NCBI GenBank assembly: GCA_963704805.1
Contig: CAVPHS010000001.1
Location: 850,496 to 914,495, forward strand
Length of the DNA: 64,000 nt
Direction of reading: 5' to 3'
From: an uncultured Gemmatimonadales bacterium
GTDB lineage: Bacteria; Gemmatimonadota; Gemmatimonadetes; Gemmatimonadales; GWC2-71-9
In this document: positions 16,938 to 21,128 of the stretch, piece after piece
Layout of the letters: each line of letters starts with the position of its first letter
How positions within the stretch are numbered: the first letter of the stretch is position 1
The notes under the pieces: model-generated
What the model saw: only the letters and a program-made list of their open reading frames with translations
Databases searched by the model: none
What the model was told of the DNA's origin: nothing
Made by a program: the position numbers and the translations under genes

Positions 16938-19900
16938 ATGATTGCGAATTCCAGCTCGAAGGCAGTCATGAGATGGTTGATCGTCATTGGCACGCTCGCT
17001 TCCAGCGCGGCGTTGCCGACTGTCTCCGAAGCCCAAACGGGTCTCGTTGCCGCGTGGAGTTTCAACGAGGGCACGGGCACCACCGTCGCCGATGCCTCCG
17101 GCAATAACAACACGGGCACCATCTCAGGCGCGACGTGGTCGACGCTCGGCCGCTTCGGCAATGCCCTCAGCTTCAACGGTTCCAACAACCTCGTCCTCGT
17201 CAACAGCTCCGCTTCGCTCAACCTGACGACTGGGATGACGCTGTCGGCGTGGGTGTTCCCCACGGCGGCGCAGAGTGGCTGGCGCACCATCGTACAGCGG
17301 CAGGTCGATGCCTACTTCTTGCACGCCAGCAGTGATGCTGGGCCGCTGCGCCCGGGTACGGGCGGCACGTTCAACGGTCTCGACCGCCATTTCTCGGCCC
17401 CCAGCGCCATCGCGGTCAACACGTGGACGCATCTCGCCGTCACCTACGACGGCGCGACGCTCCGCCTGTTCGTCAACGGCACGCAGGTCGGCACCACGCC
17501 CGCGACGGGGTCGCTCGAGACCAACACCAATCCGCTGCGCATTGGGGGTAACACCTACAACGAGAATTTCCAGGGCCGCATCGACGATGTGCGGATTTAC
17601 AACCGTCCGCTGACGGCCGCCGAAATCCAGAGCGACATGGCTGTGTCCGTGGGTGGTGGCTCGCCACCGCCGCCACCGCCGCCACCGCCGCCACCGCCGC
17701 CACCGCCGCCACCACCGCCGCCACCACCGCCGCCACCGCCGCCGCCGCCACCACCGCCGCCGCCGCCACCGCCACCGCCGCCGCCGCCGCCGCCGCCCTC
17801 AGGGCTCGCGGCCGCGTGGAGCTTCAACGAAGGCACGGGCACCACCGTCGCCGATGCCACAGGCAACAACAACACGGGGACCATCTCCGGCGCGACGTGG
17901 TCGACGCTCGGCCGCTTCGGCAATGCCCTCAGCTTCAACGGTTCCAACAACCTCGTCCTCGTCAACAGCTCCGCTTCGCTCAACCTGACGACCGGGATGA
18001 CGGTGTCGGCGTGGGTGTTCCCCACGGCGGCGCAGAGTGGCTGGCGCACCATCGTACAGCGGCAGGTCGATGCCTACTTCTTGCACGCCAGCAGTGATGC
18101 TGGGCCGCTGCGCCCGGGTACGGGCGGCACGTTCAACGGTCTCGACCGCCATTTCTCGGCCCCCAGCGCCATCGCGGTCAACACGTGGACGCATCTCGCC
18201 GTCACCTACGACGGCGCGACGCTCCGCCTGTTCGTCAACGGCACGCAGGTCGGCACCACGCCCGCGACGGGGTCGCTCCAGACCAACACCAATCCGCTGC
18301 GCATCGGCGGCAACACATACGCCGAGAATTTCCAGGGCCGCATCGACGATGTGCGGATTTACAACCGTCCGTTGACGGCCGCCGAAATCCAGAGCGACAT
18401 GGCGGTCGGCGTGGGCGGTGGCTCACCGCCGCCACCGCCGCCACCACCACCACCACCACCACCACCACCACCGCCACCGCCGCCACCGCCGCCGCCACCG
18501 CCGCCGCCGCCGCCGCCACCGCCGCCGCCACCGCCGCCGCCACCGCCGCCGCCGCCGCCACCGCCGGCCTCAGGGCTCGTGGCCGCGTGGAACTTCAACG
18601 AGGGCACCGGCACCACCGTCGCCGATGCCTCAGGCAACAACAACACGGGGACCGTCTCCGGGGCGACGTGGTCGACGCTCGGTCGCTACGGCAATGCTCT
18701 GAGCTTCAGCGGTTCCAACAGCGTCGTTGTGGTCAGCGGCTCCGCCTCGCTCAACCTGACGACCGGGATGACGCTGTCGGCGTGGGTGTTCCCCACGGCG
18801 GCGCAGAGCGGTTGGCGCGCCATTATGCAGCGGGAGGTCGATGCCTTTTACCTGCACGCCAGTAGCAATGCCGGGGCCCTGCTTCCGGCGGCGGGCGGCA
18901 CGTTCAACGGCGTGGGCAATAACTTCGCGGCGCCGAGCGCGATCGCGGTCAATACGTGGACGCACCTCGCCGTCACATTCGACGGCGGGACGCTCCGGCT
19001 CTACGTCAACGGCGCCCAGGTCGCCACGAAAGCCGCGAACGGGTCGCTCGAAACCAACACGAAGCCGCTGCGCATCGGCGGCAACAGTCCCTACGGTGAG
19101 TTCTTCCAGGGCCGCATCGACGACGTGCGCATCTACAACCGACCCCTGACGGCTGCTGAAATCCAGAACGACATGACAGTCCCGGTCGTGCCGGTCCCGC
19201 CGAAGCTCGTCATCCTCCAGCCCGCAGCCGGGAGTGTGATCAACAGCACGACGGTCGACGTCGCGTACAGCGCTTCCGGTGACCTCACCGAGGTCAATCA
19301 CGTTCATTTCCAGCTCGATGCGAATCCCGAGGTCATGGACCTGACCTTCGACGGGGCGTACCAGTTTACGAACGTGCTGGTCGGCTCTCACTTGCTCAAA
19401 GGATATCTCGTCCGCGCCGACCACTCCCATATCCTGGGCACCGACACATCAGTCACGTTCTCGACGGCGGCGCCAGACTTAACGCCCCCAACCGTCGCGA
19501 TCACCGCGCCCGCCCCCGGGGCGAATCTCACGGGTACCGTCACGGTGTCGGCCAATGCGTCCGACAACTCCGGCGTAATCGCCGGCGTCCAGTTCCTGCT
19601 CGACGGCGTGGCACTCGGGCCGGAGATCACCACCGCACCCTATTCCAGCCCGTGGAATACCGTCACGGCGTCGAACGGGTCACACAGCCTGACGGCCCGG
19701 GCCCGGGACGGCTCCGGTAACCCGACTGTATCGTCGCCGGTCGCCATCACGGTGACCAACAATACGTCGACCGACCCCGCCGTGGTCGGGCTCTGGTCAC
19801 AGGTTCTCACCTGGCCCATGATTGCGATCCACATGAACCTCATGCCCAACGGCAAGGTCCTGGTGTGGGACGACCACACGGATGGCTCGGGTGCGGGAGT

Positions 19901-21128
19901 CTTCGATCCGGCCACGCTTGGGATGACGATCGTACCGCTCGTGTCCGCGAATCTCTTCTGCGCCGGCCACAATCTGCTCCCGGATGGCAGAGTCTTCGTC
20001 GCGGGCGGGCATGCAGGCGCGGCGCACGTCGGTATTCCCAATGGCACGATCTTCAATTCGCTGACGCAGAGTTGGACGGCGGTCGCGCCGATGGCGGTCA
20101 GCCGCTGGTACCCCACCGTGACGACGTTGCCCGATGGGCGCGTGGTGACGATCGGTGGCGAGGTGAACTGCAACGACTGTAACGCGCTCGTGCCCGAGGT
20201 GTTTGACCCGGCGACCGGGGCCTGGACGCGCCTCGCGAACGCGCCGCTCGACCTCCCGTACTACCCTCACGACTTTCTCATGTCCGATGGCCGGATCCTG
20301 GTGACCGGGGCGAACAAACGGGAGATGGCCACGTACGCGCTCGACGTCGCCACCCAGACTTGGACAACAATCGATCCGACCGTACTCCACGCCGGCAGCT
20401 CGGTCATGTACGGGCCCACCAAGTTCATGAAGTCGGGCCGTGGGCGGGACCCCGATCTCTCCGGCGCGCCATCGGTCGCCACCACGTATGTGCTGGACAT
20501 GTCCGCGCCGTCTCCGCGGTGGCGCCAGACGGCCTCGATGGCCTACCCGCGGACCGAGCACAACCTGACGCTGCTGCCTGACGGCACCGTCCTCGCTTCC
20601 GGAGGCGGGCTCAACTCGGACGTGTACGACCCCAATGCACCCGTGCGGACACCGGAGCTGTGGAACCCGGTCACCGAGATCTGGACGCCGCTGGCGTCGA
20701 TGCCGACGCCGCGCATCTATCACTCCACCGCGATGCTGTTGCCGGACGGGCGGGTCTTGTCTGCGGGCGGCGGCCGCACTGGGCCGGACCAACTCAGCGC
20801 CGAGTTCTACTCGCCGCCCTACCTCTTCAAGGGGTCACGCCCGACGATCAGCTCGGCACCGGCGACGGTCGCCTACGGCTCGGACTTCTTTGTGGGAACA
20901 CCGGACGCGGCCAACATCTCCGCCGTGAACCTGCTCAGGCTGGGATCGGTGACGCACGCCTTCAATGCCAACCAGCGGATCGTCAAGCTGACGTTCCAGC
21001 CGGGCGCTGGCGGTCTCACCGTGCAGTCGCCGAGCGGTGCCACCCTCGCGCCGCCCGGGCATTACATGCTGTTCATCCTCAATGCCAACGGGGTTCCGTC
21101 CGTGGCGTCGATTATCCGGATCCAGTGA
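16938..21128 (+). CDS. Secreted multidomain protein: 3x LamG (Laminin_G_3) modules with polyproline linkers, Ig-like domain, copper-radical oxidase (glyoxal/galactose oxidase beta-propeller + DUF1929)
   Basis: The start is probably ATG 16938 or 16968 ([23 protein letters not shown] signal peptide). The LamG signature [21 protein letters not shown]...[19 protein letters not shown] occurs three times. Oxidase motifs present are FCAGH (Cys 19959), RWYPT (Tyr 20109), IYHS (20718-20723) and VTHAFN (His 20955). The C-terminus is [21 protein letters not shown]. Confidence 0.85.
17664..17798 (+). repeat. (CCR)n tract = 45 consecutive proline codons
   Basis: Codons were counted directly from TCG(17661) CCA... 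to CCC(17796-17798) TCA. Confidence 0.95.
18426..18566 (+). repeat. (CCR)n tract = 47 consecutive proline codons
   Basis: Codons were counted directly from TCA(18423) CCG... to CCG(18564-18566) GCC. Confidence 0.95.

Follow-up and report, generated by a model that had tools for sequence, protein, structure and literature searches.

Very few bacterial copper-radical oxidases (CROs) have been characterised, and those met in the present analysis are GlxA of Streptomyces and a galactose oxidase of Pseudoarthrobacter. Bacterial CROs have been reported to fall outside AA5_1 and AA5_2 (PMC11267884). GlxA of Streptomyces lividans and Streptomyces coelicolor (4UNM) is a secreted enzyme with a membrane-anchoring N-terminus and an operon partner, cslA, and it has no LamG, immunoglobulin (Ig)-like or polyproline modules. 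Galactose oxidases (GalOx), both the bacterial one (9G43/9G8H) and that of Fusarium graminearum (1GOF, CAZy AA5_2), carry a single N-terminal accessory module of the carbohydrate-binding type, other than LamG, before the propeller and the E-set domain, and they also have no polyproline. Poly-proline linkers have been described in CelA of 'Ca. Reconcilibacillus cellulovorans', in which a GH9-CBM3c unit is combined with two CBM3b modules (PMC6794216). Here we analyse a stretch of 64,000 nucleotides of an uncultured Gemmatimonadales bacterium (contig CAVPHS010000001.1; the whole stretch is called the window hereafter), which contains a gene encoding a CRO preceded by three LamG modules and two Ig-like domains, with a tract of 45 and a tract of 47 consecutive prolines between the LamG modules. 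The predicted protein differs from GlxA in all of these modules, as well as in its N-terminus and its gene neighbourhood. With the galactose oxidases it shares the general plan, in which a module of the carbohydrate-binding type comes N-terminal to the propeller and the E-set. Like CelA (PMC6794216), it would be a secreted carbohydrate-active enzyme in which repeated binding modules are joined by poly-proline; the two differ in catalytic domain, binding modules and phylum, and they are likened by the type of the linker, not by its length.

The C-terminal unit of the protein can be assigned securely as a complete CRO at the level of sequence and predicted fold, from which the corresponding chemistry would be expected. 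This assignment is based on the agreement between matches to hidden Markov models (HMMs), the alignment of five catalytic residues, the invariance of these residues in homologues and the predicted fold. Searches with phmmer against the PDB gave the galactose oxidase of Pseudoarthrobacter siccitolerans (9G8H/9G43) as the best solved match (E = 8e-54), together with Streptomyces GlxA (4UNM, 3e-50), the Colletotrichum alcohol oxidase AlcOx (5C86, 8.5e-45) and the Fusarium galactose oxidase (1GOF, 5e-44), values that exclude a chance match. In these alignments, the FCAGH, RWYPT, IYHS and VTHAFN motifs fall on the Cys, Tyr, Tyr-His and His motifs of the solved oxidases. Tyr1058, Tyr1261, His1262 and His1340 stand in the columns, aligned against 9G8H and 4UNM, of the GalOx ligands Tyr272, Tyr495, His496 and His581, and Cys1008 aligns with FCPG of 9G8H as the counterpart of the GalOx thioether Cys228, a correspondence in the presence of the residue from which the cross-link is predicted. 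All five residues were invariant in an alignment of 40 homologues with 46-78% identity, and the Trp before the Tyr was present in 39 of them.

The Pfam search of the whole protein detected three stretches of Laminin_G_3, a family of the concanavalin A-like lectin/glucanase superfamily (333.3 bits in total), and the GO-like_E_set/DUF1929 domain (86-93 bits). Glyoxal_oxid_N (PF07250) scored 35.4 bits on the whole protein, just below its cut-off of 37.5, and 42.9 bits, above this cut-off, on the propeller alone, which is also matched by several kelch models. An AlphaFold model of the part from LamG3 to the C-terminus (853 aa) had a mean pLDDT of 90.3, and the 27 top Foldseek matches of this model in the PDB were all CROs (for 5C86, TM 0.83 and rmsd 2.8 Å). 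A preliminary description of this DNA, made from the sequence alone, had proposed a complete radical oxidase with all the hallmarks of such enzymes. PF07250 on the propeller, PF09118, the aligned and invariant residues and the fold, which matched CROs before anything else, all agree with it. Its motif coordinates are exact as well (the Cys of FCAGH at 19959, the Tyr of RWYPT at 20109, the Tyr-His of IYHS at 20718-20723 and the His of VTHAFN at 20955). Two of the results that it had named as counting against the proposal were not seen: the Glyoxal_oxid_N and DUF1929 assignments are upheld above cut-off, the former on the isolated propeller, and the five catalytic residues are not misaligned with those of the solved oxidases.

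The active site shares several features with that of GlxA, to which the model superposes with a Foldseek TM of 0.69. Both have the same set of Cys-Tyr, Tyr-His and His residues, a Trp directly before the cross-linked Tyr (RWYPT compared with ARWYPT in 4UNM, where the pair is Trp288-Tyr289), a short YYPH loop (LPYYPHDF) and a similar YPxxF loop after the Tyr. Galactose oxidases, in contrast, have galactose-binding GGSWSGG (Trp290) and YRSDNH (Arg330) loops, of which the window protein has no equivalents as judged by sequence alignment; at these positions, the phmmer alignment with 9G8H shows a replaced segment and the shortened LPYYPHDF stretch, with no Trp or Arg. Because of this GlxA-like active site, with RWYPT and no equivalents of Trp290 and Arg330, the activity of a classical galactose 6-oxidase is not expected. 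The propeller loop in which galactose oxidases hold the stacking Trp290 is occupied by a CxxC pair (EVNCNDCN), kept in 35 of the 40 homologues, which could be linked as a disulfide or provide an additional site for a metal or for redox chemistry. The best NCBIfam match of the protein was the GlxA model NF052501 (E = 1.6e-65), with 221.6 bits, far below the equivalog cut-off of 800. From its sequence, we conclude that the enzyme is not an orthologue of GlxA, and that it is not a classical galactose 6-oxidase either.

The protein is encoded by an open reading frame (ORF) at 16674-21128 on the plus strand (1484 codons counted from the first ATG), with a GC content at third codon positions (GC3) of 0.83, typical for the genes of the window, the GC content of which is 66%. 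The likely start is either the ATG at 16938, chosen in the preliminary description, or an alternative ATG at 16968, which has AAGG 5 nt upstream. Both starts lead to a hydrophobic N-terminal segment that ends, as read from the sequence, in VSEA/QTGLVAAW (the slash marks the junction), and the hydrophobic core and the A-x-A/Q junction are kept in the full-length relatives P0001, P0009, P0014 and P0018. This N-terminus is probably a Sec signal peptide, and the oxidase would be secreted. The signal peptide is followed by a LamG module, 45 prolines, a second LamG module, 47 prolines, a third LamG module, two Big_7 domains, the kelch propeller and the GO-like E-set, so that the three LamG modules and the all-proline linkers before the catalytic unit are found as previously described, with linkers of exactly the lengths given. 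The earlier claim of one Ig-like domain is right as to its type and wrong as to its number, as there are two Big_7 matches (30 and 71 bits), the second of which also matches the 'bacterial immunoglobulin domain B1' of PDB 9kvu (E = 1.6e-8).

LamG1 and LamG2 are 98% identical in amino acids and 95.5% in nucleotides, and module 2 is also supported by direct repeat families (D1-D3) with periods of 762 and 771 nt. LamG3 shares 79-81% identity with modules 1 and 2 and 84% with module 3 of L001b, and has an all-beta fold in the model (pLDDT 80-95). Among the nearest solved relatives of these modules are an extracellular arabinanase, with its C-terminal module (5HON/5HO0), and the S-layer-domain protein 4QVS. 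The nearest genomes, all from uncultured Gemmatimonadales (L001, L002 and L003), have 80%, 77% and 74% identity, respectively, over the Ig and oxidase part. The N-terminal LamG copies are 95-99% identical within a genome versus 81-90% between genomes (window 17034-18425, L001 7355-11938, L003 53-3337, and P0001), which suggests that the LamG-spacer units either evolve in concert or were duplicated recently and independently. What lies between the LamG modules is interchangeable: pairs of Ig-like domains in P0001 and P0003 (75-78% identity), polyproline-Ig-polyproline in L001 and polyproline alone in the window. The separation of the LamG modules is thus conserved and the sequence of the separator is not, which supports a role as spacer.

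A polyproline-II helix extends by 0.31 nm per residue, and each rod would thus be approximately 14 nm long. The rods are placed between LamG1, LamG2 and LamG3, and LamG3 is joined to the oxidase via the two compact Ig domains. The preliminary description had envisaged an enzyme kept at a set distance from a cell-surface or polymer substrate; an enzyme spaced away from the cell surface does not agree with the layout, in which the rods set LamG modules apart and do not stand between the enzyme and a binding module or an anchor. A lipobox Cys, a transmembrane segment and a C-terminal sorting domain are all absent from the protein, its C-terminus being the last E-set strand. The predicted anatomy is that of a semi-rigid stalk bearing the enzyme at one end, along which three binding-type modules are placed approximately 14 nm apart.

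The codons used in the two tracts differ from those used for proline elsewhere. Within the tracts, 59 codons are CCG, 32 CCA and 1 CCC (92 in total), compared with 46 CCG, 28 CCC, 3 CCA and 2 CCT in the remainder of the gene and 107 CCG, 76 CCC, 8 CCA and 7 CCT in eight other genes of the window. The share of CCC is thus 1/92 in the tracts versus approximately 37% elsewhere, and CCC is also avoided and CCA enriched in the tracts of the L001 and L003 genes. Polyproline contexts have been reported to prefer CCG and CCA and to avoid CCC and CCU (PMC12856214). The shift seen here agrees with this preference, and it fits the avoidance of slippery poly-C DNA equally well; under either explanation, the avoidance of CCC points to selection on the translated tract.

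The tracts are also found in related genomes. The orthologue in L001 (1527 aa, on a 1.16-Mb contig) has the order LamG, polyproline, Ig-like, polyproline, LamG, polyproline, LamG, Ig, Ig and oxidase. Directly upstream of it lies a tandem paralogue (2938-7173, an ORF of 1411 codons) of the form LamG-polyproline-Ig-polyproline-LamG-oxidase with runs of 16 and 51 prolines, and the window has one copy. In L003, two LamG modules are separated by 30 prolines. Considering L001, L003 and L198, polyproline tracts flank LamG modules in the orthologue next to cstA in three independent Gemmatimonadales assemblies, and we consider it unlikely that the tracts are an assembly artefact. A chimera across the repeats, the remaining ground for refutation named earlier, is likewise improbable in view of this shared organisation. 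The possibility that the tracts are non-coding CCG repeats or artefacts was rejected on the basis of their in-frame continuity, their presence in orthologues and their codon bias. Short-read contigs of close relatives stop precisely at the N-terminal edge of a LamG module or inside a polyproline tract (L198 at 1-211, L199 at 1 and L200 at 8). The contig encoding P0010 has 34 in-frame prolines directly upstream of the called start, in a frame that is open to the contig end, and P0012 and P0022 begin at a contig edge at the same LamG boundary. Because these contigs end at the LamG border or in polyproline, the 'single-LamG' entries of approximately 848 aa (P0010, P0012 and P0022) are 5'-truncated gene calls, and because short-read assemblies break at the tracts, protein databases under-report the architecture.

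The composition LamG, Big_7, Glyoxal_oxid_N and E-set (PF13385, PF17957, PF07250 and PF09118) was found in at least 115 of the 120 best matches in a search of 5.8 billion proteins, with one to four LamG modules each, and 108 of the 120 passed a strict test for the active-site motifs. These matches span Gemmatimonadales, Vicinamibacterales, Burkholderiales, Planctomycetes and others, so the architecture does recur in other lineages, as the preliminary description had proposed to check; at NCBI, such proteins are named 'LamG-like jellyroll fold domain-containing protein'. In soil metagenome-assembled genomes, proteins of the same composition (for example P0065, P0075 and P0080; Burkholderiales and Vicinamibacterales) have their LamG modules separated by fn3, Big or Ig domains. 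With the catalytic domain alone, 7,685 cluster representatives were found at E <= 1e-30, and the majority have it within large multidomain proteins. No description of the combination of LamG, Big_7 and oxidase was found in the literature searched, which agrees with the earlier view that the architecture is undescribed; rare it is not. None of the 120 best matches has a run of more than nine prolines, and within the family long polyproline spacers were found only in the window, L001, L003 and L198. Uncultured bacteria thus commonly have this domain combination; what is unusual is only the spacers of 45-47 prolines, long polyproline spacers in the family being confined, so far, to a narrow group of Gemmatimonadales.

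Long polyproline linkers are not unique to this oxidase, as they are also present in unrelated secreted proteins of soil bacteria. A scan of metagenome contigs for (CCN)40 gave at least 120 loci, among which a tract was counted only if it had mixed codons and lay within a long ORF. Among the matches listed, approximately 35 are such tracts of 40 to 92 prolines, on contigs of 65-72% GC, and they adjoin GH5, fn3, Big_2, PL14-like or PASTA domains. In seven of these contigs (L085, L095, L127, L144, L155, L169 and L178), the tracts are written with CCG, CCA and CCT and almost no CCC, and lie between folded extracytoplasmic domains that are unrelated and do not include LamG or an oxidase. Examples are 70 prolines next to a GH5 cellulase (L085), the arrangements Big_2-P73-fn3-Big_2 and P92-fn3-PL14-like (L127, L169 and L095), and a domain followed by 40 to 54 prolines and PASTA (L144, L155 and L178). 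For comparison, the longest natural proline run in Bacillus subtilis is four, and runs of nine or more are absent from Escherichia coli (PMC12856214, PMC4218817). Most of the (CCN)40 matches listed were poly-C homopolymers, concentrated in a small number of samples, and were set aside. These contigs (L081, L096, L105, L114, L122, L126, L160 and many others) come from samples Ga0179591/Ga0179593, with 40-130 'codons' and 50-60% GC, and their poly-C runs are probably artefacts of sequencing or assembly, or else low-complexity DNA of non-bacterial origin.

We find it reasonably probable that the gene encodes a Sec-exported modular CRO in which the LamG modules target a polymer and the polyproline rods serve as spacers. 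In such an enzyme, the propeller and E-set unit would bind one copper via Tyr1058, Tyr1261, His1262 and His1340, and Cys1008 and Tyr1058 would form the thioether radical cofactor. The oxidase would convert a primary alcohol, or an aldehyde, with O2 and release H2O2. The three LamG jelly rolls may bind a polymeric, probably glycan, substrate or surface, and the two tracts, as semi-rigid polyproline-II rods, would hold these modules apart. This would allow multivalent binding across approximately 30-40 nm, with the oxidase at one end.

Several points weigh against such a targeted enzyme. The similarity of the LamG modules to PDB modules is weak (E ~1e-7), and no signal for outer-membrane export or anchoring is visible in the protein, the final location of which may be the periplasm, the surface or the medium. 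Long polyproline is only semi-rigid, which makes the behaviour as a 'ruler' an extrapolation, and the exact lengths of the tracts are known from one assembly, in which three neighbouring genes look frame-disrupted. Besides, clustering of the ORFs flanking 77 related loci and the window revealed no conserved neighbour that points to a substrate; the best non-self cluster comprised 16 of the 77 loci and was absent from the window.

The enzyme might instead be morphogenetic in the manner of GlxA. It would then act jointly with a glycan synthase to modify the nascent exopolysaccharide of its own cell, in the way that GlxA and CslA do in Streptomyces, and the LamG modules would keep the enzyme on this polymer. 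The first rank of GlxA among the NCBIfam models, the alignment of RWYPT and the YYPH loop with GlxA and not with GalOx, and the nearly invariant Trp would all fit this role. We nevertheless judge it unlikely, considering the low score relative to the equivalog cut-off and the extent of the strong phmmer match, which covers only residues 233-614, the Cys-bearing N-terminal part of GlxA matching only weakly (residues 39-177). The genomic context gives no support either, since no cslA-like glycan synthase, lytic polysaccharide monooxygenase (LPMO), Sco copper chaperone or DyP peroxidase is encoded in the window and no neighbour is conserved across the related loci. Another view is that the enzyme generates H2O2 from small diffusible alcohols or aldehydes, like glyoxal oxidase (GLOX) or AlcOx, and that the array of LamG modules and polyproline merely parks it on particles or on the envelope, where it would feed peroxidases or LPMOs or antagonise competitors. 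The compact propeller superposes best on 5C86, an aliphatic alcohol oxidase from a fungus, it lacks the residues with which GalOx binds galactose, and no polymer-specific partner genes were found at the 77 loci or in the window. On the other hand, three tandem binding-type modules with maintained spacers would be costly for localisation alone, and the peroxidase or LPMO to be fed is missing from the window. This possibility appears decidedly unlikely to us.

Two further explanations would deny the enzyme altogether. If the gene were a chimera assembled over near-identical LamG repeats and low-complexity CCG/CCA DNA, or a decaying pseudogene, the near-identity of LamG1 and LamG2, the breaks of relatives' short-read contigs at this very point and the frame disruptions in neighbouring genes would be understandable, as would the absence of the exact protein, looked up in five alternative start variants, from a collection of 15 billion proteins. 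The gene is, however, intact as an uninterrupted 4.2-kb ORF with coding-type GC3. LamG1 and LamG2 can be distinguished because the repeats differ at approximately 4.5% of positions. The same LamG-polyproline-LamG organisation and synteny recur in three independent assemblies, and the codon bias of the tracts points to selection at the level of translation or mutation. An artefact or pseudogene is therefore very improbable. That the kelch propeller is only a binding scaffold in a non-catalytic adhesin would accord with the binding function of many kelch propellers and with the generic kelch models that match it. It is hardly credible in view of the five copper and cofactor residues, all present and invariant in 40 of 40 homologues, and of an E-set that is complete with the last His. 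The reading as an exported, polymer-targeted CRO is the one that we prefer, and the positions of its parts are given in the table below.

Features of the oxidase gene, with positions in the window
Feature	Position	Strand	Basis or remark
Start codon and Sec-type signal peptide (predicted)	16938-17033	+	Read from the sequence; alternative start at 16968; junction conserved in relatives
LamG module 1 (Laminin_G_3 jelly roll)	17034-17663	+	PF13385, 119.9 bits on the segment, profile positions 2-151 of 151
Polyproline linker 1, 45 consecutive Pro	17664-17798	+	Read from the sequence
LamG module 2	17799-18425	+	Pfam Laminin_G_3 stretch; direct repeats D1-D3
Polyproline linker 2, 47 consecutive Pro	18426-18566	+	Read from the sequence
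LamG module 3, adjoining the Ig/oxidase part; orthologue of module 3 of the L001 protein	18567-19193	+	Best Laminin_G_3 stretch in Pfam
Ig-like beta-sandwich 1 (weak Big_7)	19194-19472	+	PF17957, 30 bits against a cut-off of 24.1; strands at model residues 213-300
Ig-like beta-sandwich 2 (Big_7)	19473-19760	+	PF17957, 71.2 bits against a cut-off of 24.1
Kelch-type beta-propeller with copper site (predicted)	19761-20837	+	Glyoxal_oxid_N, kelch models, alignments to 9G8H/4UNM
Propeller residue Cys1008	19959-19961	+	
Propeller residues Trp1057-Tyr1058	20106-20111	+	
Propeller CxxC loop	20169-20180	+	
Propeller residues Tyr1261-His1262	20718-20723	+	
GO-like E-set (DUF1929) with last copper ligand His1340 (20955-20957)	20838-21128	+	PF09118, 92.6 bits, positions 1-100 of 100
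Stop codon of the oxidase gene	21126-21128	+	

The window and L001 share the gene order kdpD, kdpE, two small minus-strand genes, oxidase and convergent cstA, with 79-85% DNA identity over positions 13520-24000 of the window. The remainder of the window consists of ordinary chromosomal genes, including kup, kdpAB, icd, moeA/mobA/fdhD, iPGM and IMPDH. The kdp locus comprises a BBP2/OmpL-like porin (9577-10686), a short DUF4118+GAF ORF (10702-11454) that resembles the middle of KdpD, and then a full-length kdpD (11462-14143). On the minus strand, cstA (21062-23185) is convergent with the oxidase gene and overlaps its 3' end by approximately 17 nt. It is split into two frames by one extra C near 21881 (CTGGCCGCAG in the window versus CTGGC-GCAG in L001 and L003) and is intact in L001, L003 and L198; the split copy is either a pseudogene or the result of a sequencing error. 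The two minus-strand genes between kdpE and the oxidase (14863-15810 and 15782-16669) contain in-frame stops and out-and-back frameshifts compared with their intact L001 counterparts. The proteins encoded by these counterparts have 307 aa, with a signal peptide and no Pfam match, and 308 aa, with a FlgD_ig domain at the C-terminus. Of the six genes that surround the oxidase, three are thus disrupted, and the 4.2-kb oxidase gene itself is intact. The upstream stretch of approximately 2 kb (14843-16937) had been considered as a decayed tandem paralogue of the kind found in L001; tblastn found no similarity to the oxidase, the stretch matches the two L001 minus-strand genes, and this candidate was rejected.

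Overall, the lineage-specific feature of this bacterial CRO, which its LamG modules would target to a polymer, is a pair of pure polyproline spacers of 45-47 residues. A more far-reaching proposal, which we regard as doubtful and put forward only tentatively, is that pure polyproline rods of 40-90 residues form a widespread and essentially undescribed class of spacers between the domains of proteins secreted by high-GC soil bacteria, Gemmatimonadota among them, with codons selected for CCG and CCA and against CCC, implying a translation of polyproline far beyond that of the model bacteria studied. In the present protein, they might act as a ruler with a pitch of approximately 14 nm that matches three lectin modules to a periodic polymer, in an array kept homogeneous by concerted evolution. 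How EF-P-dependent translation copes with two runs of 45-47 prolines in one gene, and with as many as 92 in other genes from metagenomes, is a concrete question, and the spacers provide long rigid linkers of natural origin. What such enzymes oxidise in soil could be learned from a tractable member of the LamG-linked clade, which could also supply new biocatalysts.

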